DNA of 55,441 nucleotides from Patescibacteria group bacterium (GCA_016784175.1 JADHVC010000003.1:1-55441), one strand, 5' to 3'. Positions 1 through 55,441 are shown, numbered from the stretch's first letter. The notes: generated from the letters alone by a model not told the origin. Numbers and translations are program-made.

Positions 1-157
1 GCGCATATGGAATATGTAGTAATTTTTAGCAGAATTTAACTTAAAAAATTTTATGTTTGAGTGAAGCGAGTTTAAAATTTTTGTTAAATTGTGCGTAAAA
101 AATTGCCCAATATTCCATCCTAAGCGAAAAAGTGATGCAAGTATAGTGAGCAGTTAC
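1..157 (+). repeat. ~189-nt palindromic intergenic repeat, copy 1 (left part cut by window edge)
   Basis: Begins GCGCATATGGAATATGTAG and ends GTGATGCAAGTATAGTGAGCAGTTAC. Near-identical to the copies at 10856, 13573, 23080, 25885, 43711 and 55288. Confidence 0.9.
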
Positions 158-233
158 GAATACAGGACACATTAATAAAATAGCTTGACACAAAATATTA
201 ATATATACTAAGATTGACATAATATTTGGATAA

Positions 234-269
234 CAAAAAAATCGTCACCTAAGCGACGATTTTTTTTTG
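234..269. terminator. Bidirectional rho-independent terminator downstream of hsp20
   Basis: Stem ATCGTC (241-246) / GACGAT (255-260), flanked by an A-run (234-240) and a T-run (261-269). Confidence 0.6.
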
Positions 270-283
270 CTAGTAGCTACTAT

Positions 284-748
284 TTATTTCTTTTTAGTTT
301 TAGCTTTGATGATTATAGTTTTCTTTTTTGTTTCTGCTGATTTTGGTATCGTAATTTTTAATACTCCATCATGAGCTTCTGCCTCAGCTTTATCGCCTTG
401 AACATGGGTTGGTAATTGGATGCATCTATAAAAACTGCCACGACGAATCTCTTTTCTGTAGTAATCTTTTTCTTCAACTTCCGATTTTTTTTCTGACTCT
501 CCCTTAATAGTTAATATGTCATTTTCGATTGATATCTCAACATTCTCTGGGTCAATGCCGGCCAGTTGAGTTTCGACTATCATGCTATCTTTTTCCTCGT
601 ACATATCTATCGCTGGACTAAAATCACTTATTTTGTTTATAGTTGGTTGCATCCCTTCGAATACTTTATCCATATCTTCAAACGCTTCAAAAATACTGGG
701 CGTCCATTTTATTAAAGACATAATTTGTAATTTTGAAATATAAGGCAA
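284..748 (-). CDS. Small heat shock protein, Hsp20/alpha-crystallin family
   Basis: Alpha-crystallin domain motifs (DMYEEKD..IVE..LAGIDPENVEISIENDILTIKGE ... AEAHDGVLKITIPK). An alternative start is the internal Met at 721. Confidence 0.9.
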   Translation of the reverse strand: MPYISKLQIMSLIKWTPSIFEAFEDMDKVFEGMQPTINKISDFSPAIDMYEEKDSMIVETQLAGIDPENVEISIENDILTIKGESEKKSEVEEKDYYRKEIRRGSFYRCIQLPTHVQGDKAEAEAHDGVLKITIPKSAETKKKTIIIKAKTKKK

Positions 749-783
749 GTATTACTTACTTGAACCGAATATTTTAAAATATA

Positions 784-1245: not shown

Positions 1246-1249
1246 AAAT

Positions 1250-1918
1250 TTATTTTAAATTACTGCAAATTAACTTAATTAATCTAATATTTTTTTTATA
1301 ATCCATTCGCATGGGTCCAATTATGCCAAGCATTCCATCACCAATACTCGTTCTATATTTAATAAGAATCGATGAGCAAAAAGAGCCGAATGGATTTTCA
1401 GAACCAACTAGTATATGTTCGCCTATAGCGATTGTGTTAAACGAGTTGTCAATTATTTCGTCTATTTCATCGATAATTTGTGAAATATCGTATACTTTAT
1501 TCATCTGCGAGAATTCCGGTTGTTTTAGTAAGTTTGATATGCCTGTATAGTATAGATTTTTTCTTGTAAAGGCGCAAAATACTGCTAAATTAGACTCTTG
1601 AGCTAGGTTTTTGGCTATCGATTTTAGTTCAACCTCGTCAGCGCTAACCTTTAAGCTGTTTAAATCGGCCAGTTTGCATTTAGAGAATATACCTTGAGCG
1701 TACTCGCGATAAGACCTTTCGGTTGGGATCCGTCCAGCAGAAGTATGAGGTTGATGAATGTAGCCTAATGTTTCTAGCTCTGAGAGCCTTTGGCGGGCAG
1801 TAGCAGGTGAAATATTTAAGTTATATTTTTCTACTAAAACACTCGACCCAACTGGTTCAGCTGAGGCAATATGCTCTATAATTAGACAATGTAAAATTTT
1901 ATTTAAATTCTCATTCAT
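1250..1918 (-). CDS. hrcA: Heat-inducible transcription repressor HrcA (short form)
   Basis: N-terminal wHTH (EPVGSSVLVEKYNLNISPATARQRLSELETLGYIHQPHTSAGRIPTE) and C-terminal GIIGPMRMDYKKNI motif. Start set at the Met at 1918, because the longer ORF-track start (1954) lies inside the CIRCE/promoter. Confidence 0.88.
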   Translation of the reverse strand: MNENLNKILHCLIIEHIASAEPVGSSVLVEKYNLNISPATARQRLSELETLGYIHQPHTSAGRIPTERSYREYAQGIFSKCKLADLNSLKVSADEVELKSIAKNLAQESNLAVFCAFTRKNLYYTGISNLLKQPEFSQMNKVYDISQIIDEIDEIIDNSFNTIAIGEHILVGSENPFGSFCSSILIKYRTSIGDGMLGIIGPMRMDYKKNIRLIKLICSNLK

Positions 1919-1925
1919 TGCCTGT

Positions 1926-1963
1926 ATTTTATAAAAGTAGCACTCAAGTGTCAAGAGTGCTTA
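1926..1963 (-). promoter_or_regulatory. CIRCE operator overlapping a sigma70-like promoter of hrcA
   Basis: The + strand at 1937-1963 reads GTAGCACTC-N9-GAGTGCTTA, compared with the CIRCE consensus TTAGCACTC-N9-GAGTGCTAA. On the - strand, TTGACA (1954-1949), a 17-nt spacer and TAAAAT (1931-1926). The ATG lies 7 nt after the -10. Confidence 0.8.
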
Positions 1964-1983
1964 CAGAACAGGTGAGGTGCTAT

Positions 1984-2014
1984 GAAAAACCCCGAGAAAT
2001 TAAAATTCTCGGGG
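1984..2014 (-). terminator. Rho-independent terminator after the 431-aa repeat protein gene
   Basis: Stem CCCCGAGAA (1990-1998) / TTCTCGGGG (2006-2014), followed on the - strand by a T-run (1985-1989). Confidence 0.75.
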
Positions 2015-2023
2015 TGTTGTTGG

Positions 2024-3319
2024 TTATTGTTCTTGTTTTATTAGTTCAAATAGTTTTTTAATCGCAACTTTTTTAGTCTCATTGTCAGCATGTTGATCTG
2101 AATAATAAGCCGCTCGGATACTCCCTATGGAGGTGGAAGCATGCACTGCGCTCAATGATAATTCATTCCATCGCTTGGTTACAATTTCCATTTCTTCAGC
2201 TGTTAGGGGCACACACTTTGTTAAAATAAATTGTATTTCTCTAGTAGTAGTTATAAGGCTACACCATCTTTTAAGTACAATATCTCTGTGTTTTTTATCA
2301 GTCGTGCAAAATAACGACTCAAGCTTTTTAGTATCTTTAGTTAATTCGCATATTTTTGAAAGTGCCTCAATTTGAAGTTCAGGATATTCAGAAGTTTTAG
2401 GCAAGACTTCTTCAAAATCATCAACGGTTTCGCAAAAAGAAAGCCACTTCTCAAGTGCTAATTTTTCTGATGGTGTATTTTTAGGTGCATCACAAAAAGC
2501 ATTAAAGGCTTCTTCTTTAGAATTTGCAGCTTGCGCTTCATTGGTCGATAACAAAGACCATCTATCTAGTAGCATTTGGCGAATTTCCACCAGATCTTTT
2601 CTTACATACTCAAGTGTATCCCGAACCTCCAATGCGCTAAGCATAGTGGTACACAAAATAGACGTCGCTATTTTTTGAGGCTGACTATTGTCTGGCGCAG
2701 CTCGAAGAGCATCAAGAGCCTCATTCGGAGTTTTTGCATTTTCTGCTTCTTTTAGTGCTTGTGCTAACCATTTATTCATAACAGTCTCTTTAAGTTTTTT
2801 TAAAAAGCCTGGAATTTTTCTATATATATTCTGTAAACTTTCCGAAGTAGTAGCTTCTTCAAGCAATGCAATGGAAATTTTTTCGCATTTTTCGCGCGCA
2901 ATACGCTTAGCACTGCTCTTGGTTGGTGAATGGACATAAGCCGAATATGCTTTTTCTAAAGTTGTTGCGTTTTTTGCATCTCGAAGTGATAGTTCCTCCC
3001 ACTTAGTGAGAAAGTAAGTTGTGTCTGCCCCAACTGAGCTTAGCGCACGTACCACTTCTTTTGCCATAGAGGCGTCAACAACATCCTTGTGGCAATACAT
3101 GGCCATTTCGAGTATTTTTTCACGTATAGCTTGAATAGCCGTTTCGCTTGTTTTACCGCTGTTCTTATAGGCAAAATATATTTCAAGCAACACTTTAAGA
3201 TTACGCACTTCCTCTAGCGTTTCTAATAAATCTTTTTCTTCGAGATGGACTACGATCTCTGGAATAGTAATGTCGAGTGTACTTTTTATTTTTTCTACAA
3301 TGTCAAGTGCTGTTTGCAT
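2024..3319 (-). CDS. Hypothetical alpha-helical repeat protein (431 aa)
   Basis: Long ORF with recurring modules anchored on [KR]W (W107, 184, 254, 292, 352, 384). Examples are KWEELSLRDAKNATTLEKAYSAY, KWLAQALKEAENAKTPNEALDAL, RWSLLSTNEAQAANSKEEAFNAF and RWNELSLSAVHASTSIGSIRAAY. I do not recognise a family. Confidence 0.7.
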   Translation of the reverse strand: MQTALDIVEKIKSTLDITIPEIVVHLEEKDLLETLEEVRNLKVLLEIYFAYKNSGKTSETAIQAIREKILEMAMYCHKDVVDASMAKEVVRALSSVGADTTYFLTKWEELSLRDAKNATTLEKAYSAYVHSPTKSSAKRIAREKCEKISIALLEEATTSESLQNIYRKIPGFLKKLKETVMNKWLAQALKEAENAKTPNEALDALRAAPDNSQPQKIATSILCTTMLSALEVRDTLEYVRKDLVEIRQMLLDRWSLLSTNEAQAANSKEEAFNAFCDAPKNTPSEKLALEKWLSFCETVDDFEEVLPKTSEYPELQIEALSKICELTKDTKKLESLFCTTDKKHRDIVLKRWCSLITTTREIQFILTKCVPLTAEEMEIVTKRWNELSLSAVHASTSIGSIRAAYYSDQHADNETKKVAIKKLFELIKQEQ

Positions 3320-3453
3320 TGCTATTGCTCCCGTGTAGGTTGTTTGGTATTTAAAGAACCATTATCTTTTTACGCTACTTTTAGCAAATGTCAAGTATTA
3401 TTCATAACTACTAACTTGCTTTTAGTAAAATGCGACGCTAAAAAAGAAATCAT

Positions 3454-3482
3454 ATAAAAAAAACGATGCTTTTCATATCGTT
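3454..3482 (-). terminator. Rho-independent terminator after the receiver-domain gene
   Basis: Stem AACGAT (3462-3467) / ATCGTT (3477-3482), followed on the - strand by a T-run (A-run 3454-3462 on +). Confidence 0.6.
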
Positions 3483-3524
3483 TGTAATCCTAAAGTTTGA
3501 TTGATTATATTTGGTTAGCTAAAC

Positions 3525-3884
3525 TTATTTTTTTATAAAGGGCTTTAGGAGCTGTGTAAAATTATTGCTGATTGGTTTTGGAATAAAGCCATCACAACCA
3601 ATATCAATAATTTGCCTAACCTCAGCTATCGAAGCATTCGCAGTAACGGCAATTATCGGATATATGTATTTGCGCGATTCTCGTAAGGTTCTAATAGCAA
3701 CCATGCCACTCATTAATGGCATATGCATATCCATCAGTATAATATCAGGCTGAAGTTCCATTGCTAATTCTATTCCGTGTAAACCATTCTTAGCCTCATG
3801 GGCAATATATCCCTCCAACTCAAGTAATGTTTTCATATATTCTCGAATGCTATCGTCATCGTCAATGACCAGTATTTTTGTCAT
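3525..3884 (-). CDS. Stand-alone response regulator receiver domain (CheY-like)
   Basis: MTKILVIDDDDSIREY...DIILMDMHMPLMSGM...PIIAVTANA...GFIPKPI contains the canonical receiver acidic pocket, phospho-acceptor Asp and conserved Lys. There is no output domain and no kinase in the window. Confidence 0.9.
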   Translation of the reverse strand: MTKILVIDDDDSIREYMKTLLELEGYIAHEAKNGLHGIELAMELQPDIILMDMHMPLMSGMVAIRTLRESRKYIYPIIAVTANASIAEVRQIIDIGCDGFIPKPISNNFTQLLKPFIKK

Positions 3885-3926
3885 GTTCTCGGTCTCCGTC
3901 TGAAAATGTTGAGTGGTTGTGTGTCA

Positions 3927-4028
3927 TTACCAAGTCCTCTTTCGATTTTCCTTAAATATCTTATTAATTATGGTTGGAAACTGATCAGTACACAATTGTC
4001 GATCATCGTCTACAACAAGAATTCTCAT
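3927..4028 (-). pseudogene. 33-codon fragment resembling a receiver-domain N-terminus
   Basis: My translation of the - strand gives MRILVVDDDRQLCTDQFPTIINKIFKENRKRTW-stop. The MRILVVDDD start mimics a response regulator N-terminus, directly upstream of the intact receiver gene. Confidence 0.35.
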
Positions 4029-4210
4029 AACTTACTCCAAGTTTTAAAAATATAATATTTTGATTAAAAGAACATCCCCATAGTAAAATATATAGATATT
4101 GCTATGATAATAAAATAACATAATAATGATATAATTATTACAATGGCTTTAATTGCAGAAAAATTTAGAAAAATAAATGTTGACCGATAGTAACATTGTC
4201 AAGGTTGGTA

Positions 4211-4239
4211 TTGACGAACGTAATTGTTAATGCTATATA
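4211..4239 (+). promoter_or_regulatory. Sigma70-like promoter candidate
   Basis: TTGACG (4211-4216), 17-nt spacer, TATATA (4234-4239), about 40 nt upstream of the ORF at 4279. Confidence 0.4.
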
Positions 4240-4278
4240 TAAGTAATAATGTAGTTCATTTTAAAAAAAAGGAGACAT

Positions 4279-4578
4279 GTGATGTTTACTGAAACCGAGC
4301 ATGGTTATCAGCGTGCTGATGTTTTGAATCCTGAGCAACGCCTATGGTTTGCTGTTTTAGAACAAGTAAAGAAAGATATAGACTTGATCTTTAACAAAGA
4401 TAAAGATAATAAGTTATTATTAAATGATATAATTACATGGATGGAAACCCGTGGTTTTAGGGAAGTTTGCTCGATGGCTAATGTTGAGCCCACTTGGGTA
4501 AAAAAGCTTCTCAATACACATATTAATAATCAATACTTAAAGATACTTGAAAAAAATATAGCAAAGGAGTTGCAATGA
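4279..4578 (+). CDS. Hypothetical protein (99 aa)
   Basis: ORF preceded by the SD-like AAGGAGA at 4269-4275. Start is GTG 4279 or ATG 4282. No recognised motif. Confidence 0.6.
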   Translation: MMFTETEHGYQRADVLNPEQRLWFAVLEQVKKDIDLIFNKDKDNKLLLNDIITWMETRGFREVCSMANVEPTWVKKLLNTHINNQYLKILEKNIAKELQ

Positions 4579-4742
4579 TCGATCATCAAATAGATAGCTC
4601 CAACCAGAAGTTAAAGACAAGGGCAGTTGACATCTTTAAAAATTTCCTTTGTCTAATTGCTGCTTGCATGCTTTTAGGAATGGTACTCTTGTTGATACAA
4701 ACAGTAAAGAAAACAACTATTTCTTTATTACTTCTATCTTAA
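4575..4742 (+). CDS. Small hypothetical membrane protein (55 aa, absent from the ORF track)
   Basis: ATGA start/stop overlap with the upstream ORF. Translation is MIDHQIDSSNQKLKTRAVDIFKNFLCLIAACMLLGMVLLLIQTVKKTTISLLLLS, with one hydrophobic helix. A terminator follows. Confidence 0.45.
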   Translation: MIDHQIDSSNQKLKTRAVDIFKNFLCLIAACMLLGMVLLLIQTVKKTTISLLLLS

Positions 4743-4752
4743 AAAAAACAAC

Positions 4753-4780
4753 ACAGTGGGGTAACTCACTGTTTTTATTT
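4753..4780 (+). terminator. Rho-independent terminator
   Basis: Stem ACAGTG (4753-4758) / CACTGT (4767-4772), followed by TTTTTATTT. Confidence 0.55.
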
Positions 4781-4831
4781 ACAAGAAAATATTATTGTGA
4801 TACATTAAGATCGTAATTTAAACAAAAAACT

Positions 4832-5794
4832 ATGTCAGGAACAAAAGGAATACAAGCGAGAATAAAATCGGTAAAGAACACCAAAAAGGTTACTAAAGCT
4901 ATGGAAATGGTAGCGGCTGCAAAAATGCGTCGTGCTATTGACGCTGTTCTAAAAACTAGAACTTATGCTAGTTTAAGTTGGGAAATTGTTTTAAGGTTGT
5001 CTCAAGCGGTTAACAATGAACACCCTCTGTTAACTAAAATAATTACCACAGGTAAACAAAAGAAGGATGTGCCATCTAGTAAAATTGCCGTAATACTATT
5101 TACTTCCAATCGTGGTCTTTGTGGGGGATTTAATTCTAATATTATAAATGAATTATATAAAACTATAAAAAATACAGTAAAGTCAGAAAATGTAGACCTA
5201 ATATTGGTCGGCAAGAAGGGCGTAACTGCACACAATCACTATAAATATAATATTGAAGCAGAGTTTGTTAAGCCAGATATTGCAAGTGGTGTGGATGATG
5301 TAGTACCAATAGTTAAATTAGTAATAAAAGATTATTTGGCTGGTAAATATTCGAAGATAATTATAGCTTACACTGATTATATTAATGCAACAAAACAAAT
5401 GCCAAGGGTTAAACAGTTGTTGCCAGTCAATGTAAATAAGGAAGACGAATATTTGGGGACAGTAGATGTTGGTGAAAATAATGCAAGTTCACATTCTGTG
5501 ATTGAAGAAAAGCCTAAAAAGAAATTAAATGACAGCAATGAGTATATATTTGAACCTAGTCCTCATGAAGTATTAGACGAAATGGTACCAAGGTTAATCG
5601 AAGTGCAAATATTCCAAGCTCTTTTAGAGTCAAATGCCAGTGAACATTCAGCAAGAATGACAGCGATGCATCAAGCAACAGATGCTGCTAGCGATATGAT
5701 AGACGAGCTAACTTTAACTTATAATAAGGTAAGACAGGCGGGAATTACAGCCGAGATTGCCGAAATTGGTGCGGGTGTTAACGCAATGAATTAA
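4832..5794 (+). CDS. atpG: F0F1 ATP synthase subunit gamma
   Basis: N-terminal IKSVKNTKKVTKAMEMVAAAKMRRA, LCGGFNSN, and C-terminal SARMTAMHQATDAASDMIDELTLTYNKVRQAGITAEIAEI. Confidence 0.95.
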   Translation: MSGTKGIQARIKSVKNTKKVTKAMEMVAAAKMRRAIDAVLKTRTYASLSWEIVLRLSQAVNNEHPLLTKIITTGKQKKDVPSSKIAVILFTSNRGLCGGFNSNIINELYKTIKNTVKSENVDLILVGKKGVTAHNHYKYNIEAEFVKPDIASGVDDVVPIVKLVIKDYLAGKYSKIIIAYTDYINATKQMPRVKQLLPVNVNKEDEYLGTVDVGENNASSHSVIEEKPKKKLNDSNEYIFEPSPHEVLDEMVPRLIEVQIFQALLESNASEHSARMTAMHQATDAASDMIDELTLTYNKVRQAGITAEIAEIGAGVNAMN

Positions 5795-5803
5795 ATTTAA
5801 TAA

Positions 5804-7227
<1,424 letters not shown>

Positions 7228-7889: not shown

Positions 7890-9092
7890 TTATTTCAATC
7901 TTGGGTTTAGTAACATCGACATTTCGCGAATTTTTTGATCTGCTTGGAAAAATGGTCCAGACATTTTGCCAATATCATCATACCCCATAGAGTTCATTAT
8001 AAACATGTGGTCATTATCTAGCACTAATTCAAGATTATTCAGTGCAATTTTCATAAGGTCTACAAGCGATCGTCTAGTGATCACTTCTTCGAACTCTACT
8101 GACGCAACTTTTAGTATTGCGTAGACTGCAAAGGCAGTTCCCTTGGCTCTATAAAAAACATTGTCTGCCGTAAAATTCCCAACATTTGTTCTTACCATTT
8201 TATTTCCAGCATCAACAGAATCGCCAGCGCCTTCAGCGTTTGGAGTATATTTCTTTCCTGTAGATTCTTGTGACATTTTTGTTTGAATATGGCCCATTTG
8301 TGAATGTAAAACATGCAACAACGAACCCAGATTATCCTCTCTTAGTTCAAAAACAGATTGATTCTTTTGTCTAGAGGCAATGTATTGTCTTAGGCTTTCA
8401 TTTGACTCACTAAGATAATACGGGTAAATAAAGAAAATATCTTCAGGAATACTTGTTAGGCCAAGCGCGCGCTCAACAAAGGGGTCTTTATCTCCCGTCG
8501 TTCTGTGTCTTGCAACATCTTCATGAAGGGAAAAAAGAACAACTTTCCATACCTGACGCTGGCCAAGTTGAAATTCTGGTAAGTTATCCATCCACCAGCG
8601 AAAAAGTAAATTACTTGGAATCCATGTTCGATTAAGTTCACCTTGTTGCAAGTTAATTATAGTTTGTATAAACGCTTCACCAGGGACACTGGTCTTTTGG
8701 GCGACAGGCGGTCGTCGTGGTATTTGGCTGATATAGGCACCATAAAAAACTATTAAAAAGACTATTCCAAGCGCAAGAATGCTCGTTACTTGGTATCTTA
8801 TTTTTTGTCTCCTAAGATGTAGAGGTAATTCACGGAAAAGCCACCTTGTATTTTTCGGCAAAGCAAGAGTAAAACGCCAAGATTGAAGCAAGAAATTGGG
8901 TGTTCCTGTTAAAATAGCGAGCCCTGATTTCTTGATAGTTTGCATAGCCGTTGATTCGGTTGGTTCACTTTTTTGTGGCACTAACGCAAAATTTTTTTCG
9001 TCATCGGTCCCATCTTTATTGTTAATACTACTTGGGGCTAAATCGGAAGCCCTTTTCTCTTTGCTATTGTCGCTGTAATCAAATTCGGCCAT
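7890..9092 (-). CDS. Hypothetical membrane-anchored protein (possibly DUF2333-like; weak recollection)
   Basis: Start placed at MAEFDYS (9092), which has a strong SD (GGAGGAAGG) 3 nt upstream. A good promoter (9141-9169) lies inside the longer ORF-track version. There is one TM helix (ILALGIVFLIVFYGAYI). Confidence 0.65.
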   Translation of the reverse strand: MAEFDYSDNSKEKRASDLAPSSINNKDGTDDEKNFALVPQKSEPTESTAMQTIKKSGLAILTGTPNFLLQSWRFTLALPKNTRWLFRELPLHLRRQKIRYQVTSILALGIVFLIVFYGAYISQIPRRPPVAQKTSVPGEAFIQTIINLQQGELNRTWIPSNLLFRWWMDNLPEFQLGQRQVWKVVLFSLHEDVARHRTTGDKDPFVERALGLTSIPEDIFFIYPYYLSESNESLRQYIASRQKNQSVFELREDNLGSLLHVLHSQMGHIQTKMSQESTGKKYTPNAEGAGDSVDAGNKMVRTNVGNFTADNVFYRAKGTAFAVYAILKVASVEFEEVITRRSLVDLMKIALNNLELVLDNDHMFIMNSMGYDDIGKMSGPFFQADQKIREMSMLLNPRLK

Positions 9093-9712: not shown

Positions 9713-10774
9713 CTATATTTTTTCTGCTTCGATGACTCTAAATGCAGCTTCAATATCCTCGGTTTGAAATGTAGATATTTTATTGATCGAAGATAGAAAA
9801 ACTTTTGCATTTTTGCATTTTTGGGCTAATGTTTCTGGTATTAGAATTTGATTCATTTTGTGTCTTTCAAATAGAAAAATATAACCACAATGTATTCTTG
9901 TTCTTGGATCATATTCGCTTGTTATTTCATAAAGATTAATTATTTCCTCGGCAAGGCTAAAAAAGTCAAACGCTAGTTTATACTTAACAGTTTCAATGTA
10001 GCAATATGCTCTTGCTATATATATTTGATGATCCAATCTATCGCCTAAAAATTCTTCAATCTCGTCTAGGGTCGTAATTGATTCTTCGTATTGCTTATTT
10101 TTTCTTAATAACTCTGCTAATAAGGTTTTATTCATTAATAGCGAGTTATTATTTTTTGATATACTTACAAGTTTTCTTGCAATTAAAATTGCATCTTGAT
10201 ACCTACCAAGTCCTCTAAGTGTTCTTATGAGAGTTATGTAGTCAGAATGTCCTCCTCTCATATTAACCGCTTCTTGTGCTGCCGAAGCAGCCTCAACAAA
10301 TCGACCTGTAGCCAAATAGCTTTTCGCAAGATAGATGAAAGTAGAAGCGTTTGGTTCAAGTTTAATAGCACTCATCGCAGCTTTAATAACCAGTTTATGT
10401 TCGCCTTGCTTAAAATAAATCTCTACCAAAATAGTATAAAATATAGCATACTTCTTTCTTTTAATCGTTTCTATCAATAATTGTATTGCCTCATCAAATT
10501 TTTTGAATTTTATACAAGCTCGCGCGAAAATTATCGTTGACGCTGTACTACCATTTAATTCAAAGTTCCTCTTTGCTACACGATAAGCATTTATAAAATT
10601 ACCCAGATTCATTAAGCATTGTGCTTTCAATCCAAGTGCACGAATATTATTAGGATCAATGCGCTCTACTATTTGGATTAATTCGATCGCTCGTTTTGGG
10701 TTTGTTATTCGTAAGTCATATACTAATTTCAATGTGCTATGAATATCTTTACGCTCAATTATTGTCTGACTCAT
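9713..10774 (-). CDS. TPR-repeat protein
   Basis: Repeated 34-aa-like helical motifs (A..Y..A........A). Start set at MSQTIIERKD (10774), which has the SD AAGGAGA upstream. The ORF-track start is 10825. Confidence 0.7.
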   Translation of the reverse strand: MSQTIIERKDIHSTLKLVYDLRITNPKRAIELIQIVERIDPNNIRALGLKAQCLMNLGNFINAYRVAKRNFELNGSTASTIIFARACIKFKKFDEAIQLLIETIKRKKYAIFYTILVEIYFKQGEHKLVIKAAMSAIKLEPNASTFIYLAKSYLATGRFVEAASAAQEAVNMRGGHSDYITLIRTLRGLGRYQDAILIARKLVSISKNNNSLLMNKTLLAELLRKNKQYEESITTLDEIEEFLGDRLDHQIYIARAYCYIETVKYKLAFDFFSLAEEIINLYEITSEYDPRTRIHCGYIFLFERHKMNQILIPETLAQKCKNAKVFLSSINKISTFQTEDIEAAFRVIEAEKI

Positions 10775-10855
10775 TAATATTTCTCCTTTTTTTATTAAAG
10801 ACCAGTACAAAAAAAATAATATCACTCATTAGTACTTATGTCAAAGAATATGATA

Positions 10856-11039
10856 GTAACTACTTGCTATACCTGCATTATTTTTGAGCGCATATGGAAT
10901 ATGTAGTATTTTTTAGCAGAATTTAACTTAAAAAATTTTATGTTTGAGTGAAGCGAGTTTAAAATTTTTGTTATATTGTGCGAAAATTGCCCAATATTCC
11001 ATCCTAAGCGAAAAAGTGATGTAGGTATAGTGAAGTTAC
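10856..11039 (+). repeat. ~189-nt palindromic intergenic repeat, copy 2
   Basis: 184 nt. Starts GTAACTACTTGCTATACCTGCAT and ends ATGTAGGTATAGTGAAGTTAC. It carries small deletions relative to the other copies. It lies between the divergent TPR and permease genes. Confidence 0.9.
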
Positions 11040-11166
11040 TAAGTACTGTATTGTAAAGCTTTTTAAAATATGATATCATTATAAAATTAGAAAAATAAGC
11101 ATGTAACTAAATAATATCTATCTAAACAAATACTGAAGAAATGTTTTTGTTTATAATAGAAAAGGT

Positions 11167-13487: not shown

Positions 13488-13572
13488 ATCTCTCCTTTTT
13501 TTTATTGAAATGAGCAGAAATACCTATAAGTAATAATAGTAAATATAAAACTATATGTCAAGCGATTTTCTT

Positions 13573-13761
13573 GTAACTACTCACTATATCTGCATTATTT
13601 TTGAGCGCATATGTAATATGTAGTAATTATTAGCACAATTTAACTTAAAAAAATTTATGTTTGAGTGAAGCGAGTTTAAAATTTTTGTTAAATTGTGCGT
13701 AAAAAAGTGCCCAATATTCCATCCTAAGCGAAAAAGTGATGCAGATGTAGTGAGTGATTAT
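13573..13761 (+). repeat. ~189-nt palindromic intergenic repeat, copy 3
   Basis: Flanked by a perfect 8-bp direct repeat ATTTTCTT (13565-13572 and 13762-13769). Lies between the divergent 13197-13487 gene and ftsW. Confidence 0.92.
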
Positions 13762-13924
13762 ATTTTCTTTATTAAAAGGTCATTTTGCGACCTCTCGCAC
13801 ATCCATATATAAATCGGCAAGCTTATCATGGACTGCTTTATAATGATTTTTCTTTAAGCAAGTGAGGTTATATAAGCAGGTATATTTTCTTTCCACGCCA
13901 GGAACTTTATGATAAAATACAAAT

Positions 13925-23034: not shown

Positions 23035-23079
23035 AATAAATTATGCAAAATGATGCAATAAAATTGAAGATAAATTATT

Positions 23080-23268
23080 GTAACTGCTCACTATATCTGC
23101 ATTATTTTTGAGCGCATATGGAATATGTAGCAATTTTTAGCAGAATTTAACTTAAAAAATTTTATGTTTGAGTGAAGCGAGTTTAAAATTTTTGTTAAAT
23201 TGTGCGTAAAAAATTGCCCAATATTCCATCTTAAGCGAAAAAGTGATGTAGATATAGTGAGCAGTTAC
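23080..23268 (+). repeat. ~189-nt palindromic intergenic repeat, copy 4 (complete reference copy)
   Basis: GTAACTGCTCACTATATCTGCAT ... ATGTAGATATAGTGAGCAGTTAC. Ends 3 nt from the proS stop codon. The flanks AAATTATT and TAATTATA match at 6 of 8 positions. Confidence 0.93.
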
Positions 23269-23271
23269 TAA

Positions 23272-25884: not shown

Positions 25885-26074
25885 GCAACTACTCACTATA
25901 TCTGCATTATTTTTGAGCGCATATGGAATATGTAGTAATTTTTAGCAGAATTTAACTTAAAAAAATTTATGTTTGAGTGAAACGAGTTTAAAATTTTTGT
26001 TAAATTGTGCGTAAAAAAATTGCTCAATATTCCATCCTAAGCGAAAAAGTAATGTAGATATAGTAAGTAGTTAC
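25885..26074 (+). repeat. ~189-nt palindromic intergenic repeat, copy 5
   Basis: GCAACTACTCACTATATCTGCAT ... ATGTAGATATAGTAAGTAGTTAC. The flanks CAAAAAAA and TAAAAAAA match at 7 of 8 positions but are low-complexity. Ends 46 nt upstream of the murD ATG. Confidence 0.92.
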
Positions 26075-26120
26075 TAAAAAAATAATTGAAAAAAGTATAC
26101 ATAAGTGGTATTTTTATACT

Positions 26121-43449: not shown

Positions 43450-43710
43450 TTCCCTTATAAATTGTTAATGAACGATAACACTTTATATAAAGACTACATC
43501 ATGTAGTATTTTTTTTCAATCCCTACGGTAAAGTACTGATAACCAATCAAAATAACCCAAAGAATAAAACTATTTTTCATACCAGTCTCGTATCCATCTA
43601 ACTATATCCACAAAAAGTGTTTACTCAAAAGAATACGCACTCTATTTGTAATGCAATAAAAAAAAGTAGTTAGGGATACCGAACACACAAAAATACGCAC
43701 TACTTAAATG

Positions 43711-43899
43711 CTAACTGCTCACTATGTCTGCATTATTTTTGAGCGCATATGGAATATGTAGTAATTTTTCGCAGAATTTAACTTAAAAAATTTTATGTTT
43801 GAGTGAAGCGAGTTTAAAATTTTTGTTAAATTGTGCATAAAAAATTGCCCAATATTCCATCCCAAGCGAAAAAGTGATGCAGACATAGTGAGCAGTTAC
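43711..43899 (+). repeat. ~189-nt palindromic intergenic repeat, copy 6
   Basis: Flanked by a perfect 8-bp direct repeat CTTAAATG (43703-43710 and 43900-43907). The terminal arms CTAACTGCTCACTATGTCTGCAT and ATGCAGACATAGTGAGCAGTTAC pair at 22 of 23 positions. Confidence 0.93.
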
Positions 43900-43984
43900 C
43901 TTAAATGCTATTGTTTTTTTTAGTAAATATGATTTACTATAATGAATCGCAATGTTCTTTAAATATACTTAAAAGGAGAAACGG

Positions 43985-44449: not shown

Positions 44450-44469
44450 TATAACACCAATAATCCCAA

Positions 44470-44499
44470 GGCTCAACATTCATTTGTTGGGCTTTTTTC
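44470..44499 (+). terminator. Rho-independent terminator after the asparaginase-like gene
   Basis: Stem GGCTCAAC (44470-44477) / GTTGGGCT (44486-44493) with two G-T pairs, followed by TTTTTTC. Confidence 0.6.
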
Positions 44500-44669
44500 T
44501 TGAACCAAATCGCCACTCTTATGCGGGAAATTAGCTAGGTTCAACCTGATTGGTCCTTGATAAACTGAACTGGTAGGTTAACGAAAAGTTAAGCCACTAA
44601 AATTTGCAAAATTTCAATAAAAATAGTATCATATATTATTCATTTAAAATTTGTAATTTTTAGTAAAAT

Positions 44670-44780
44670 ATGGATAATCCAACAATAAGCTCAAAAAAGA
44701 AAAAAAGCTACACACCAGAGTTTAAATTAAAGTTAGCAATTGAAGCAAATGAACTACCCCGCAGCAAGCTGACGGGGTAG
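44670..44780 (+). pseudogene. IS3-family transposase OrfA N-terminal fragment
   Basis: My translation gives MDNPTISSKKKKSYTPEFKLKLAIEANELPRSKLTG-stop. YTPEFKLKLAIEA matches the HTH start of IS3/IS911-type OrfA. It is cut off after 36 codons. Confidence 0.5.
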
Positions 44781-44783
44781 TTC
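44751..44783. other. GC-rich perfect hairpin at the junction of two mobile-gene fragments
   Basis: GAACTACCCCG (44751-44761) / CGGGGTAGTTC (44773-44783) form an 11 perfect bp stem. The loop CAGCAAGCTGA can extend the stem by CAG/CTG. Confidence 0.6.
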
Positions 44784-44791
44784 ATTTTGAT

Positions 44792-45235
44792 ATGAGGGCG
44801 GATAATGAAATATCAAAAGAACAATACGCAAAAAAGAAAAAAATTATTGAAAACAACATTAACCATTATTAATCGCTAATAGAAAAACTGGAAAATGAAA
44901 AAAAAGAACAAAAAGAAAAAAACATTAAATATTTTGAATTTGCTACTAATTTAAAGAAAAAGTTTGAAAATGGTACGCCGGAACTTAAAAAAAGAATTGC
45001 TTTAAATTTAGGTTCAAACCTGTCAATAAAGGATAGAAAAGCCCATTTTTGCTTAGACTTTCCTTTACGACCCTTTGAAAAGTATGCTCCAAGAGTAAAG
45101 CAAGAAATATCTATGGTTCAAACCAATGAAAAACCTTTGTTTAAAACACAAAACACCTCTTTGCAAGGTGCTTGTATCAGTATGCAGAGGCTAGTAGACG
45201 TTATTAGAACTGAGATTATGAATAATTTAAACTAA
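44792..45235 (+). pseudogene. C-terminal remnant of a large serine recombinase, with an in-frame stop
   Basis: Frame reads ...EISKEQYAKKKKIIENNINHY-TAA-SLIEKLENEKKEQ...FEFATNLKKKFENGTPELKKRIALNLGSNLSIKDRKAHFCLDFPLRPFEK.... The F.FA...F..G..E.KK.I...LGSNL.L.D.K pattern resembles the tails of recombinase-family proteins. The catalytic N-terminal domain is absent. Confidence 0.5.
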
Positions 45236-45304
45236 ATTTCCTACGACTATATAATAACATAGTCCTTAATCTTAAAAATTTCTTTTTCTGAATTTACCAA
45301 ATTA

Positions 45305-45722
45305 TTATTTTGATAAACTCGGAAAAGGAGGGATTGTAGCGGTATACAATCCCATAATGATAATCACCGAAAAATCCGCTTCGGTCCAGTTGTTGTCAGC
45401 TGAGGTTTTTTCGAACCTCATCAAGGGCAGACTGCATAGCAATCCGATCTTCCACGGAAGGGCCACAACCGCTGACATCATCTTCATCTTCAAAAAAAGG
45501 ATACTTCCCGAAAACAGCCTTTCCATCTTTGCTGATTCCACCATGGAGATACTCTTCACCGCCGTCTATTCCGACAACGAGGTTGTCTTTAGGAGCGGAG
45601 GCCCACAGAGTTTGGGTTGCCCCTCCCTCTAAATGAACGATACTGGTTTCGTAGACCAACACTTGATGGTCATGTTTTTTTCCGCCCTTATTAATCGTGT
45701 CCCACACCAACTGACTCTTCAT
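45305..45722 (-). pseudogene. High-GC hypothetical gene disrupted by a frameshift at a homopolymer
   Basis: ATG at 45722 with the SD GGGGGAGA upstream. The 108-aa frame stops at 45396, and a -1 shift (dropping one base) at the A6/T6 run (45406-45411) continues into the 84-aa-ORF frame down to 45305. Local GC is visibly far above the window background. Confidence 0.5.
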
Positions 45723-46038
45723 GCCATTTTTCTCCCCCGTTTATTCGACTGGCGAGGAGCTCTAATAATAAAGTTAAACTTCTGAGTACTAGCTTTAGTT
45801 GTAACAATTAAATTACATCCAAGGCTAGTACCCAGAAAACAACAACTGAATTTTAAAGAACAATTCTCTTTGTCTTTTACAAAGAGATAATTAAATACAA
45901 AAGTGAATTGAATTCTTATATTTAATTATCTTTTTGGAATTAATCGTGATGTTATCTTAACATATTATATTAATAATGTCAATAGCATTAGACAATAATC
46001 ACTACTGTCCGGTAGAAATTTTGGCGAAGCCAAAATTG

Positions 46039-46764
46039 TTACCAAAAACTTTGCTGTGGATTTTCTTCTGGTTTGAATTTAATAATTGTTTTTGTGTCTA
46101 GCGAGAGCATATCAATTAGACTCCTCCTAAACATTATCGTTTCTTTAATCATCCTTGTTAGCGTTAACAGTGATTTTTTAAATTTTGTTTGAAATTTAAT
46201 ATAGGCTAATAATAAATAATAAATCATCGCTATCCAAATTTGCGTCATTACTGCATTTTTACTTGTTCCTAGGAATGTTTTGATTTTCAAATTCTGCTTA
46301 ATCCATTTAAAGAAAATTTCTATCTGCCATCTGTCTTTATAAATACCAGCAATTTGCAGAGCTGTAAGTGTGAAATTGTTTGTTAAATATATATACTCTT
46401 TTTTTGTTTCTTCGTCATAATATTTAATTCTTCTTAGCTTTTTCGGATACTTTTCATATTTCATTGTCATATAATCGCCAAAAATCACTATTTCATCGGC
46501 TATTACGCCTTTTTCTAATGTTTTTTTATGCTGTCCGACAACAAAGATATTTTGGTTACTTTTAGCTCTTGAAACAAAAGTAATTTCTTTTTTATCTAAT
46601 TCTTTCCACCATTCATAATCAATGTAGGCTCTATCAAAAACCAATATGCTACCTTTCTCAATATTTAAAATCATTTGCTTTATGGCTGTGATATCAGCAA
46701 CATTACCTTCGGTAATGTTCAATAACTCTGGTATTGTTGTGCGGTTATTCAGTAATGTGTTCAA
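46039..46764 (-). mobile_element. IS4-family DDE transposase, 5'-truncated remnant
   Basis: The Y-(2)-R-(3)-E-(6)-K signature is present in YKDRWQIEIFFKWIK, along with the DRAY second-Asp motif. The frame is open for only 8 codons upstream of the TTG at 46764, so the N-terminal domain and first catalytic Asp are missing. Confidence 0.75.
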
Positions 46765-47013
46765 TCCAATAGCAAGGCCAAGATTTGTTTAATTGAGAAT
46801 ACGCAAAAAAAATCGCATTCAGCTCATGAAGTGATCTCTCAGTGTTTTTCCCATGATCATGTGAGCAAAATTGCTAATGGAGAAATGTTATTTTTCGAAA
46901 CAATCTACGGGAAAGATGCAGAAAAAGAATGTTCGAAAAAAAATATAACTCACAGCAGCGTAAAAAAATAATCAAAACGAAGTATCAAGGAGCAAATATT
47001 ATCCATAGTTACG

Positions 47014-47049
47014 CCAGTGATCCACACTAAACGTGGACACTGGTTTTTT
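47014..47049 (+). terminator. Orphan terminator-like hairpin following a gene 3' fragment
   Basis: CCAGTGATCCAC (47014-47025) / GTGGACACTGG (47033-47043), an imperfect stem followed by TTTTTTC. Confidence 0.45.
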
Positions 47050-47165
47050 CTTTGTTGAAAATTTTATGCATTGCCTTGTATTCGGTATTCTTAAATAATT
47101 AATTTACAAGTGGGTTATTATCTTGAAGTAAAAAAACAGGCTAAAATTAACCCATTTTTTATCCG

Positions 47166-47236
47166 CAGGGGTGGCAGGAATCGAACCCACGCTAGAGGTT
47201 TTGGAGACCCCTGTACTACCACTATACGACACCCCC
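47166..47236 (-). tRNA. trnW: tRNA-Trp (anticodon CCA)
   Basis: Hand-folded cloverleaf on the - strand: acceptor GGGGGTG/CACCCCT (G1-U72), U8, D-arm GTAT-AGTGGTA-GTAC, anticodon arm GGGGT-CTCCAAA-ACCTC, 4-nt variable loop, T-arm GTGGG-TTCGATT-CCTGC, discriminator G. CCA is not encoded. Resembles E. coli tRNA-Trp. Confidence 0.88.
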
Positions 47237-50578: not shown

Positions 50579-50594
50579 TTTTGATAACCTAAAG

Positions 50595-52148: not shown

Positions 52149-52170
52149 CAATGATGCTATCTTTCTTTCA
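52140..52170. terminator. Bidirectional terminator between the GT2 gene and a DEAD-box helicase gene
   Basis: Perfect 11-bp stem GAAAGATAGCA (52140-52150) / TGCTATCTTTC (52155-52165). It overlaps the GT2 stop codon and has T-rich tracts on both strands. Confidence 0.75.
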
Positions 52171-52184
52171 AAATTGTAAATCAT

Positions 52185-53870
52185 TTAGAATCTTGCCTTT
52201 GCTTTACGAAAGGGCATTTTTTTTCTATCTGTTCTTTTACTAAAACCCACTCTACCACTTCTTTTAAAACTTACCTTGCTATCTGCTTTTGTGATAAAAA
52301 TTTTCTGTCCTTTAAACATAACCCCATTTAAAAATCTAAGTACTGTGGCCTCTGACTTTCTTTCAGTTGAAAAAAGAGAGTTCTCTTGCATCAGATTTAT
52401 TCTTCCAATCTCAATACCTTTTAAATTCCTGTTTGTATTGATTAATCTGAAGAATGCTTGAATGTCAAAGCCATGCTTCTTACCAATATTTATCTTAAAA
52501 TTTATTTCATCTACAATAACTTTTCTTTCAACAACTGCTTTCCCTACTGCATTTAAATTTCGATTATTTTTATTTTCAGCAAGAAGACTACTAAATCTAT
52601 GCGCCACAAAGCGCTTAATTAAATCTTCCTTTTTAATACTTTTTAATCTTTCCGTAAACTCTACAAAATATGGCTCGGTACCAAAATCCTTAATATCAGC
52701 TACTTCAACTTCTGCAATATAACTTTCAATTTGCTTTTTGCACACCTCGCCACCATTCGGAACTTGCTTTAACTCAATCTTCTTACCGATCATAGTCTCT
52801 AGTCTTTTAATTTTTCCAACTTCTCTTGGGTTTATAATCGAAATAGAAACGCCAATATTTTGTGCCCTTCCTGTTCTTCCGCTTCTGTGAGTATAAGCTT
52901 CACTTTGGTCTGGAAGACTATAATTTATAACATGCGTTAAATTGTTTACATCGATTCCTCTAGCCGCCACATCTGTAGCAATTAACAAATGAACAAGTTT
53001 TCGCTTAAAACGATCCATGATTTTTGTTCTTATTTGTTGAGAAATTTCACCATGTAGAGCTTCCGCATTATAGTTAGCCAACTTCAACTTATCCGCTACT
53101 TCTTGAGTTTCTATTCTGGTGCGACAAAAAAGAATTCCATAGACACCTGGTAAATGGTCAAGTAGTCTTCTTAAAACTTCAAAGCGATCAGCCGGCTGAA
53201 CAACATAGTACTCATGACTAACATTGTCGGCACCTTTATTTTTTTCACCTAGACTCATCTCCTCAGCATCACCCATGTATTTTTTTGCAATTGAATGAAC
53301 ACTCTTTGACATTGTAGCTGAAAAAAGCAAAGTTTGCTTTGTGTCTGGTGTTTGCTCTAAAATAGCATCTAGATCATCTTTAAATCCCATGTCCAACATT
53401 TCATCAGCCTCATCTATCACTAACCATTTAATCGATTGTAGTTTTAAAACCTTTCTTCGAATTAAATCGTGCACACGACCAGGCGTGCCAACTACAATAT
53501 TCGTGCCATTCCTTAATGACCGAATTTGAGAATCAATCCGCTCTCCACCATAAACAGGGGTGACCGAAATTCCCTTTGAATACTTACTATATTTTTTAAT
53601 ATCTTGAAAAATCTGAATACAGAGCTCTCTTGTCGGACAAAGAACTATTGTCTGTAATTCTCTTTCATTCGATTTTATTTGATTTAAAATCGGTAAACCA
53701 TAAGCAGCTGTTTTCCCAGTGCCAGTTTGAGCCAAAGCGATTAAATGTTTTGTTGATTGTAATATGAAGGGGATAGCTTTTGCTTGCACCGGTGAAGGTT
53801 CCACAAAACCCAAGTTATCAAGACTTTTTAATATTTCAGTATTCAAACCAAGTTCTTTAAATGTTGTCAT
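52185..53870 (-). CDS. DEAD-box ATP-dependent RNA helicase with a DbpA/CsdA-type C-terminal RNA-binding extension
   Basis: Q motif, AQTGTGKT, PTRELC, VIDEADEML (DEAD), SAT, HRSGRTGRA. The C-terminal ~180 aa include INIGKKHGFD...IGRINL and a basic tail. Confidence 0.93.
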   Translation of the reverse strand: MTTFKELGLNTEILKSLDNLGFVEPSPVQAKAIPFILQSTKHLIALAQTGTGKTAAYGLPILNQIKSNERELQTIVLCPTRELCIQIFQDIKKYSKYSKGISVTPVYGGERIDSQIRSLRNGTNIVVGTPGRVHDLIRRKVLKLQSIKWLVIDEADEMLDMGFKDDLDAILEQTPDTKQTLLFSATMSKSVHSIAKKYMGDAEEMSLGEKNKGADNVSHEYYVVQPADRFEVLRRLLDHLPGVYGILFCRTRIETQEVADKLKLANYNAEALHGEISQQIRTKIMDRFKRKLVHLLIATDVAARGIDVNNLTHVINYSLPDQSEAYTHRSGRTGRAQNIGVSISIINPREVGKIKRLETMIGKKIELKQVPNGGEVCKKQIESYIAEVEVADIKDFGTEPYFVEFTERLKSIKKEDLIKRFVAHRFSSLLAENKNNRNLNAVGKAVVERKVIVDEINFKINIGKKHGFDIQAFFRLINTNRNLKGIEIGRINLMQENSLFSTERKSEATVLRFLNGVMFKGQKIFITKADSKVSFKRSGRVGFSKRTDRKKMPFRKAKARF

Positions 53871-53933
53871 ATCTATAATATTTTTTACAATTTTCTCATT
53901 ATTTATTAGTACAGAGTAATAATCGCATATAAT

Positions 53934-55136
53934 TTATTTTTTGTCAAAATGTCTGCCATGATTGCTTCTATTTGGCGCAACATAGCGTGGCTTTTCTCTT
54001 GCTATTGGAAGTATTGGAAGGTCTACTAGAGTTAAGGTCTTACGAATAAGTTGTTCAATTTTTTTAACATCATATTTTTCGGTAGGAGCAACAAATGAAA
54101 TAGCCTTGCCACAACGACCTGCTCGTCCAGTTCTACCAATTCGATGAACATAATCATCCAGATTATCTGGTAAGTCAAAATTTATTACCAACGATATACT
54201 TTTTACATCAATTCCACGAGCTGCAATATCAGTCGCTACCATTATACGAAATTTTCCATTTGTAAATCCTTCGAGAGCTGCTTGCCTTTGAGACTGAGAA
54301 CGATTCGAATGAATTTCGGTAGCAGTGTGCCCCATATTTCGAATATCACGAGCAATATGCTTCGCACCATGTTTAGTTCTGGAAAAGATAAGAACTACAT
54401 CATCATTGTATTGTTGTAATAGAGAATCAAGTAATCGCGTTTTTTCATTTTTAACGACAACAAATATCTCTTGCTCTACATTTTCAGCTGATGTTCCCTG
54501 AGGGGCAATTTCTATTCGGAGTGGTAGTTTCATAAAAGCACTTGCGAGAGCTGCAATTGTTTTCGGCATAGTCGCCGAAAATAACATTGTTTGTCGCTCT
54601 TTCGGTGCAGTTTGTAAGATACGTTTAATTTGAGGTAAAAAACCTACATCAAGCATACGATCCGCCTCATCAAGAGCAATATAATTTACACGTTTTAGTG
54701 AATATTCTCCTTGGTTCATTAAATCAACCAAACGCCCAGGAGTTGCTATTACAATGTGCGGGTTACGTCTTAGTTCTCTTACTTGCGGTATTTTTGAAGT
54801 ACCTCCAATAACAACAACGCAGCGTAACCCCAATGGAGTACCTATTTGTTTTAAAGATTCCTCAACTTGGATAGCAAGCTCACGAGTCGGAACCAAAATT
54901 AAACCTTGCCCCTTATAAAGAGCAATGCGTTGTATCATAGGAATTCCGAAAGCAAGAGTCTTGCCCGTACCTGTTTGAGCAATACCAACAATATCTTTGC
55001 CTTGTAAGGCACCAGGAATTACCTGATGCTGTATTGGCGTTGGAGTTTCGAACCCCATTTTAGTTAAAACAGAGAGAAAATTATCTCCGATCCCAAGGTC
55101 TCTAAAACTACCAGTATTTATTACTTTTTGTGTCAT
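53934..55136 (-). CDS. DEAD-box ATP-dependent RNA helicase (RhlE-like)
   Basis: AQTGTGKT, PTRELA, LDEADRML, SAT, HRIGRTGRAG. Start set at MTQKVINTGSF (55136); the ORF-track start is 55187. Confidence 0.93.
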   Translation of the reverse strand: MTQKVINTGSFRDLGIGDNFLSVLTKMGFETPTPIQHQVIPGALQGKDIVGIAQTGTGKTLAFGIPMIQRIALYKGQGLILVPTRELAIQVEESLKQIGTPLGLRCVVVIGGTSKIPQVRELRRNPHIVIATPGRLVDLMNQGEYSLKRVNYIALDEADRMLDVGFLPQIKRILQTAPKERQTMLFSATMPKTIAALASAFMKLPLRIEIAPQGTSAENVEQEIFVVVKNEKTRLLDSLLQQYNDDVVLIFSRTKHGAKHIARDIRNMGHTATEIHSNRSQSQRQAALEGFTNGKFRIMVATDIAARGIDVKSISLVINFDLPDNLDDYVHRIGRTGRAGRCGKAISFVAPTEKYDVKKIEQLIRKTLTLVDLPILPIAREKPRYVAPNRSNHGRHFDKK

Positions 55137-55287
55137 AAAATTTTTTGCCCACCTAATCTTCAAGGTCAAGCTACTAAAATGACACAAAATAAAGAGTTGA
55201 GCTACCCTAAGAATTATCTCAAGGCTTATTATTTAATTTATAGGATAAGTATATCAGAAAAATTATATTTTGTCAAGCATAAGGCAA

Positions 55288-55441
55288 GTAACTTCATTAT
55301 ATCTGCATTATTTTTGAGCGCATATGGAATATGTAGTAATTTTTAGCACAATTTAACTTAAAAAATTTTATGTTTGAGTGAAGCGAGTTTAAAATTTTTG
55401 TTAAATTGTGCGTAAAAAATTGCCCAATATTCCATCCTAAG
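55288..55441 (+). repeat. ~189-nt palindromic intergenic repeat, copy 7 (right part cut by window edge)
   Basis: Starts GTAACTTCATTATATCTGCATTATTTTTGAGCGCATATGG and runs to the last base of the window. Lies upstream of the helicase gene. Confidence 0.9.

Follow-up and report, generated by a model that had tools for sequence, protein, structure and literature searches.

A probable new MITE family with IS66-like ends, regional co-orientation and promoter-edge phasing in an uncultivated marine Patescibacteria genome

MITEs (miniature inverted-repeat transposable elements) tend to be viewed as orientation-neutral passengers of intergenic DNA. Correia elements of Neisseria (CREE/NEMIS) are high-copy, palindromic MITEs of 100-200 bp with terminal repeats of ~26-30 bp, located mostly just upstream of genes. 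They make a TA duplication, are found in either orientation, and contain an IHF site as well as functional promoters (PMC10969869). Here we describe a repeat of the same general build, found in seven copies in a 55,441-nucleotide contig from a marine metagenome-assembled genome (MAG) of Patescibacteria (candidate phyla radiation, CPR; JADHVC010000003.1, positions 1-55441, below referred to as the window); the same DNA is present in marine metagenomes. It differs from Correia elements in its 8-bp duplication, in that no promoter of its own was found, in a fixed distance of 11 bp from a resident -35 box, and in the co-orientation of its copies.

Other described systems share separate features with this repeat. 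Members of the insertion sequence (IS) family IS66 have inverted repeats of 20-30 bp that start with GTAA (GTAAGCG, GTAACCG or GTAAC) and are flanked by 8-bp direct repeats (PMC11946415, PMC12888890). Most described members come from Proteobacteria, while Bacteroidetes/Chlorobi and Firmicutes have some (PMC11946415), and Patescibacteria are unmentioned in the IS66 literature cited here. IS66a, whose proteins contain beta-clamp motifs, shows a weak orientation tendency with respect to replication (PMC3971601). In contrast to IS66, our repeat has no tnpA/B/C partner that we could find, its ends are unrelated beyond GTAA, and its orientation is uniform where the IS66 bias is weak and not absolute. 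In many IS families, among them DDE ones, insertions favour one orientation with respect to the fork, with a family-specific bias that was attributed to asymmetric transpososomes meeting the beta clamp; Tn7 with TnsE and the beta-clamp-binding IS families thus offer a parallel of orientation fixed with respect to the fork and of replichore-wide co-orientation (PMC3971601). These DDE precedents are, however, autonomous and have asymmetric ends, and such behaviour is not known for MITEs whose two ends are nearly identical, nor in combination with promoter-edge targeting. IS200/IS605 elements and the REP/REPIN-RAYT system resemble our repeat in hairpin structure, strand-specific biology, lagging-strand-tied orientation and compensatory arm changes (PMC3116915, PMC5027513), but they move as single strands by Y1/HUH chemistry, have no DDE-type inverted repeats, insert 3' of a fixed tetra- or pentanucleotide and make no target duplication, and an origin from them is excluded by the 8-bp duplication of our copies.

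According to our analysis the repeat represents a new family of MITEs, whose ends are IS66-like and which has two unusual properties, a uniform regional orientation and a phasing to promoter edges. The complete explanation that we favour, with a confidence only somewhat above even, is that of a high-copy MITE in an uncultivated marine Patescibacteria genome, which would be inserted by a DDE-type transposase supplied in trans, at the upstream edges of promoters, and in an orientation set relative to replication-fork movement. Neither uniform orientation over tens of kilobases nor base-pair phasing to the -35 box was found described for bacterial MITEs in the literature searched.

An alignment of the copies with their flanks defines a unit of ~189 bp, an imperfect palindrome over nearly its full length. 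Its 30-nt terminal inverted repeats, GTAACTRCTCACTATATCTGCATTATTTTT at the left and the complement AAAAAGTGATGYAGATATAGTGAGYAGTTAC at the right, begin with GTAAC and include the stretch GTAACTRCTCAC; inside individual copies the two 30-nt arms are 87-100% complementary. The unit contains no open reading frame (ORF), having stops in all frames, and no Rfam family was matched by it. An earlier reading of the window, made from its sequence alone (the sequence-only reading), had listed seven copies, all on the + strand, with an asymmetric core that allows orientation to be scored; all of this holds, including its chance figure of 1 in 64, with coordinates now refined (Table 1). Both halves of the core motif occur in the window on the + strand only, 7 and 6 times against 0.01 and 0.00 expected. 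Copies are ~93% identical and form a star phylogeny without local clustering, the nearest relative of nearly every copy being a consensus-like one on the contig L008; a single burst, started by one master copy, is indicated by this.

The copies are flanked by an AT-rich target-site duplication of 8 bp. Over 13 copies the flanks match at 71 of 104 positions, compared with 40.8 +/- 5.6 in shuffled left/right pairings, and none of 20000 shuffles reached 71. The duplication is perfect in c3, c6 and L11c (AAAATAAT in the latter) and has 7/8 matches in c5, L9a, L9b and L9e; no conserved motif abutting the element ends was seen in the flank alignment. Non-matching flanks distinguish c2, L9c (3/8) and L62a (1/8), which may be products of recombination between co-oriented copies with deletion of the intervening DNA. 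A duplication of fixed length combined with terminal inverted repeats argues for staggered-cut, DDE-type transposition, and together with the small, non-coding and multi-copy nature of the unit these are the features by which MITEs are recognised. The GTAAC start is the same as in the right-end repeat of ISPsy43/ISPa75 (PMC12888890), the remainder of the terminal repeat being unrelated, and 8-bp direct repeats are likewise those of IS66 (PMC11946415). From the GTAA start and the 8-bp duplication we take a putative IS66-family partner as a lead and not as a membership. Integron attC sites were also considered and rejected, since housekeeping genes of either strand surround the copies and RYYYAAC/GTTRRRY does not match the element ends.

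The association of the copies with promoter regions, suggested before, is real. When the flanks are read outward from 30 scoreable element ends, a TTG starts at offset 11 in 10 of them, where the background frequency per position is 1.9% (P = 1e-10; corrected for 50 offsets, 6e-9). The match to TTGACA averages ~1.7 of 6 throughout, with a single peak of 3.0 at this offset; at the left end of L11b TTGACA stands at offset 10. Nine of the ten phased ends have TAnnnT at a spacing of 16-18, aimed at the adjacent gene, with the start codon at a sensible distance, so that they face complete outward promoters of sigma-70 type. Of the four intergenic promoters of the window that come nearest to the consensus, three have an element end 11 bp upstream. 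Offset 11 equals the 8-bp duplication plus 3 bp; the -35 boxes lie beyond the target duplication and so are part of the target DNA rather than of the element, which occupies the region upstream of ~-47 and leaves the promoter of its neighbour intact. The phased promoter is on the left side in c3, c7, c8, L9a, L9b and L11b, on the right in c5, c6 and L9e, and on both sides in c2, from which it follows that the choice of site is symmetric and independent of orientation.

The same rule explains the gene context of the copies. Within the window they occupy 5 of 10 divergent intergenic regions but none of the 9 convergent and only one of the 33 tandem ones, a significant difference there, because a gap between back-to-back promoters is upstream of both; on other contigs it places copies between a stop codon and the promoter of the next gene, a tandem context. 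The locations on these contigs are 7 tandem, 0 divergent and 3 convergent, L008, an unrelated contig, providing one of the convergent ones. Copies are also found at 3' ends of genes. The divergent preference noted earlier (4 of ~9 against 0 of ~8 convergent) therefore stands for the window and does not extend to the other contigs, and the copies between divergent genes are five rather than four when c7, between the DEAD helicase and M23 peptidase genes, is included. Mere survival of harmless insertions would allow many offsets (in the case of L9a, each of 0-15 keeps both stop codon and -35), so that a peak one base pair wide argues for targeting. We infer that the upstream edge of the promoter is what is targeted; candidates for the recognised feature would be the upstream edge of promoter-bound RNA polymerase (~-47) or the A-rich DNA of a proximal UP element.

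The uniformity of orientation is stronger than it appeared from the window alone. In the window and its right-hand extension L015 (59 kb) 8/8 copies have one orientation, and so do 7/7 in the 33.6 kb of NODE_1131 (L009/L062) and 3/3 in the 12.4 kb of NODE_9343 (L011); the joint chance of 18/18 within three contigs is 2^-15, or ~3e-5. Logan contigs which join adjacent copies give ~8-9 direct joints against 1 inverted. The only inverted pair of neighbours is on a Logan contig of single-copy depth (window 23040-23310) that joins the left end of an element to an inverted partial copy, with the joint from 23079 to 23210; it is a candidate for a point where the orientation switches or for a nested insertion. 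The observation that orientation does not follow gene direction is confirmed, as copies in divergent, convergent, (-,-) and (+,+) contexts all keep the orientation of their contig. Local copying is not the cause of co-orientation, since identity within contigs (92.7%) is not above that between contigs (93.3%).

What sets the orientation may be replication, to which the sequence-only reading had already hinted. GC skew at third codon positions (GC3 skew) was averaged over + and - genes, which removes the coding-strand effect. On L011 the skew is +0.44 with the element on the - strand (-0.44 after flipping), and in the right half of the window plus L015, where the + strand has the element, it is -0.27 to -0.43; in both of these strongly skewed regions the top strand of the element is thus the C-rich strand, and the hint agrees with them while it fails in the weakly skewed NODE_1131. 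Along the window and L015 the skew changes gradually and without a step, from ~+0.08 (0-15 kb) through -0.09 (15-37 kb) to -0.27 to -0.43 (37-59 kb), which could be a diffuse replication-termination zone or a trace of an old rearrangement. The orientation would be fixed at insertion, when an asymmetric transpososome meets the fork or the beta clamp, or by later selection. The skew evidence is equivocal, and the link to replication, although the best-precedented reading of the co-orientation, has in our estimate about an even chance, its selection variant included.

Several observations weigh against the explanation that we favour. The weak skew of NODE_1131 runs in the opposite sense, and in the first 15 kb of the window, at the left, a skew of ~+0.08 goes together with three copies that are still on the + strand. 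L011 may belong to a sister genome, its UvrB being absent from the NCBI MAG. With no switch of orientation on any contig, and with the strands of contigs being arbitrary, nothing ties the orientation to ori or ter, and the near-identity of the terminal repeats leaves the asymmetry needed for an oriented insertion without an evident source. No transposase partner with the same ends is present in the ~105 kb examined, nor is there a tnpA/B/C or DDE_Tnp_IS66 gene at any locus fetched; the sole transposase trace of the window, an N-terminally truncated relic of IS4/IS5 type at 46039-46764 (-) covering PF01609 profile positions 41-200, shares no ends with the MITE and was rejected as partner. Finally, the 11-bp phasing could come in part from selection in a very compact genome.

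Among the alternatives, the one that survives best, as a distinctly minor possibility, is that the element inserts in random orientation and that one orientation is harmful to the fork, by a polar fork barrier due to a bound protein or by hairpin extrusion on the lagging-strand template, so that only the permissive one survives. It predicts the same regional co-orientation, it removes the difficulty that near-identical terminal repeats make for oriented insertion, and it agrees with an interior that is 4-5x more conserved than the tips, as if bound or constrained. The single-stranded DNA folds of the two strands are, however, near equal (-37.8 vs -35.2 kcal/mol), a difference too small to matter, losing every second one of several hundred insertions would be very costly, and the IS survey argued that such biases come from insertion and not from selection (PMC3971601).

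Conservation along the unit can be given in numbers: the terminal 22 nt on each side have 1.3-1.6 non-consensus bases per column against 0.31 in the interior. Tips that vary more than the interior are the opposite of what is expected from a MITE. A search for strand asymmetry in the substitutions within copies found none. The arms also show compensatory double changes in six terminal-repeat pairs, for instance at positions 4-5 of L9a, position 16 of c6 and positions 17-18 of L9e and c1. Ordinary explanations at the DNA level are arm-to-arm templated correction of the quasi-palindrome and gene conversion between copies that spares the edges, template switching on DNA being known to yield compensatory changes in quasi-palindromes; constraint on the interior is the alternative and the interesting one.

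That the element ends supply outward -10 boxes to both neighbours, as had been suggested in order to explain the divergent enrichment, is improbable. The hexamer in question, TATAGT (ACTATA on the left), matches TATAAT at 5/6 positions and is present at both ends because these are inverted repeats; its presence in most copies was correctly seen, while its distance from the tip is 10 nt (terminal-repeat positions 11-16) and not ~12, and it is not invariant. It reads CATAGT in both arms of c6, TGTAGT in the right arm of c3 and, on the left arm, ACTATG in L9b and L9c, with the first T of TATAGT gone in c6 (both arms), L9a, L9b and L9c. The position of copies upstream of genes and the promoters of Correia and other MITEs (PMC10969869) speak for such a donation, and the 46 nt between the end of c5 and the murD ATG, cited in its favour, are confirmed. 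A consensus scan, on the other hand, calls no promoter that uses TATAGT, and there is neither a -35-like hexamer 16-18 nt upstream nor a TG extension, so that no complete outward promoter of Correia type lies inside the element; the flanking genes have complete consensus promoters of their own between the element end and the gene, and copies occur in convergent regions and at 3' ends as well.

A slightly less probable alternative still is that orientation is set locally by the direction of the adjacent promoter or of transcription, and only looks regional since genes are clustered by strand. In the frame of the element, the left neighbour points away in 11/15 cases, seven of the eight tandem copies are antisense to flanking genes, and the exact TTGACA boxes that stand at offset 10-11, five in number, without exception adjoin a left end. 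But the phased side varies among c2, c3, c5, c6, c7 and c8 and their orientation is nevertheless identical, L9e is sense where its contig neighbours are antisense, and divergent regions have no single direction of transcription.

Very unlikely, in our view, is a strand-specific structured RNA whose function would keep the orientation, another hint of the earlier reading. The + strand of the unit does fold better as RNA (-85.7 kcal/mol, shuffle z = -12.5, compared with -66.5 kcal/mol for the - strand, six pairs being G-U), and six stem pairs have the compensatory double changes. The G-U pairs, however, were inherited from the master copy and are not independent evidence, compensatory changes arise from DNA-level template switching too, and Rfam has no match. 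Most copies lie upstream of outward promoters in DNA that is probably untranscribed, and 7/8 tandem copies would be transcribed as the weaker strand. Three metatranscriptomes from one study were compared with the sequence, contig counts being a weak measure that counts for little; in one of them seven or eight 151-nt contigs fall on 20 kb of unique genes and one on the whole element family, a ratio that DNA contamination would invert. It agrees with copies placed in untranscribed DNA upstream of promoters and speaks against an abundant RNA of the element. We infer that the element works neither by donating promoters nor by making RNA. Chance or an assembly artefact is scarcely credible: contigs do end in the repeat, which is hard for assemblers, yet three independent assemblies agree, matching 8-bp duplications confirm both junctions of each copy, the gene order is that of ordinary operons, and 18/18 has a probability of 2^-15.

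The number of copies in the genome was estimated from word depth, which, summed over contigs of the same run, is 1400-5000 over the element against 7.6 in the unique flank; this ratio corresponds to a few hundred copies. Reading ~105 kb gave 18 copies or fragments, that is ~170 per Mb or 3% of the sequence, a density biased upwards by two sampled loci that were found via the element, the window alone having ~135 per Mb. A census that covered 183,232 genomes has 123 per Mb as its highest density of MITEs (PMC11602168), so that the ~170 per Mb, with the same reservation about the two loci, is above the census maximum. As to the host, sister-contig proteins are deposited at NCBI as '[Patescibacteria group bacterium]' with the locus tag ISS03_, and the nearest genome among the GTDB representatives, a Parcubacteria-group MAG, has a PheT identity of only 47%; it has no related element and hence offers no empty site to compare. 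Elsewhere the family is rare. A 31-nt core pattern gave 0 matches in the 185,579 representative genomes of GTDB, IMG/VR gave 0 as well, and a 19-mer search of JGI metagenomes gave 5, of which one is a true copy (that on L008).

Patescibacteria are known for very small genomes. In a CPR genome of roughly 1 Mb, several hundred copies would, if both rules are true, form a polar genome-wide array at ~-47 of the strongest promoters, and such an array could have been co-opted, for example as an upstream platform for binding that the copies share, or as a polar signal in the organisation of the chromosome; co-option, if true, would explain the interior being 4-5x better conserved than the tips. We may even suggest, as a speculation with the probability well on the low side, that the insertion machinery reads two host landmarks, the promoter upstream edge, which gives the site to the base pair, and fork polarity, which gives the orientation. 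Where MITEs are generally taken to be neutral as to orientation, here is a family with an orientation uniform over at least 59 kb and ends phased to one base pair with respect to a resident -35. If both rules hold genome-wide, the family records promoter positions, and possibly fork direction, in an unculturable organism, and would be a tractable case for transposase sensing of promoters and replication. The analysis also indicates the use of canonical TTGACA-17-TATAAT promoters in this CPR lineage.

Table 1. Copies of the element, their duplications and the promoters adjoining them (window coordinates unless a contig is named).
Feature	Position	Strand	Remarks
c1	1..157	+	left part cut by contig start; right terminal repeat intact
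c2	10856..11039	+	between TPR gene (-) and permease (+); flanking 8-mers 10848-10855 / 11040-11047 match 1/8
c3	13573..13761	+	between 96-aa ORF (-) and ftsW (+); right tip mutated (GATTAT)
c3 duplication	13565-13572 and 13762-13769		ATTTTCTT, perfect 8 bp
c4	23080..23268	+	tandem, hisS stop codon to mreB start, both genes -
c4 duplication			AAATTATT/TAATTATA, 6/8; overlaps hisS stop codon
c5	25885..26074	+	between beta-lactamase-fold gene (-) and murD (+)
c5 duplication			CAAAAAAA/TAAAAAAA, 7/8
c6	43711..43899	+	between GGDEF-EAL gene (-) and asparaginase-like gene (+)
c6 duplication	43703-43710 and 43900-43907		CTTAAATG, perfect 8 bp
c7	55288..55441	+	cut by contig end; complete on overlapping contig L015 at 8173-8359; neighbours seen on L015, DEAD helicase (-) and M23 peptidase (+)
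c8 (eighth copy)	L015 11907-11960		co-oriented with c1-c7; ~3.5 kb past c7
TPR gene native promoter	10816..10844	-	TTGACA-17-TATTAT; -35 starts 11 nt from c2 left end
Permease promoter-like site	11051..11079	+	TTGTAA-17-TATCAT; -35 starts 11 nt from c2 right end
Native promoter left of c3	13533..13561	-	TTGACA-17-TATTAT; -35 starts 11 nt from c3 left end
murD promoter-like site	26086..26114	+	TTGAAA-17-TATTTT, TG extension; -35 starts 11 nt from c5 right end
Promoter-like site right of c6	43911..43940	+	TTGTTT-18-TACTAT; -35 starts 11 nt from c6 right end
Helicase native promoter	55248..55276	-	TTGACA-17-TATACT; -35 starts 11 nt from c7 left end
L9c	L009 ~10031-10218		non-matching flanks
L62a	L062 ~5409-5597		non-matching flanks
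Copy with duplication	L009 5951-6151		13-nt internal tandem duplication (GTTTAAAATTTTT)
Shortened copy	L009 13839-13889		
Shortened copy	L011 1214-1352		
Shortened copy	L062 4406-4470		

The window starts and ends inside copies of the element, as a metagenome contig broken at a repeat, and other assemblies break at the same places. Further contigs were obtained via short ORFs called on element copies, via proteins of the window that other assemblies also contain, and by walking a single step. The longest frame of the element led to two proteins and by them to two new contigs, while a six-frame composite led to nothing; a chimeric protein query returned two of the four wanted proteins and one extension of 13 kb. 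Leftward extension of the window via HSP20 gave no longer contig, and polymorphic absence of c2-c5, sought in the metagenome of another study, gave no contigs skipping these copies.

Some features of the sequences deserve mention on their own. The promoter-like site of murD ends 7 nt before the annotated ATG, which would mean a leaderless mRNA or a mis-called start; the length of murD is given as 443 aa by ENA and as 440 aa by NCBI. The transposase relic mentioned above belongs to a gene-poor island (44450-47150) together with an orphan ORF at 45396-45722 (-) of 48% GC; beyond the island come tRNA-Trp (47165-47236, -) and then the gene for L33, and the whole resembles a decayed insertion adjoining a tRNA gene. 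The SecD gene (33268-35316) has fused peptidyl-prolyl isomerase (PPIase, rotamase) domains according to precomputed Pfam matches, an unusual architecture. In the same sample, the contig L063 (1-5320) comes from a low-coverage organism and carries a Y1_Tnp (IS200/RAYT-like) gene beside a CARDB protein homologue; a link of this Y1 transposase to our element was rejected, as L063 represents another organism (28% GC) and is without a copy of the element. L063 has REP-like hairpins of its own, with GTAGAGACGCGATTTATCGCGTCT in inverted pairs.

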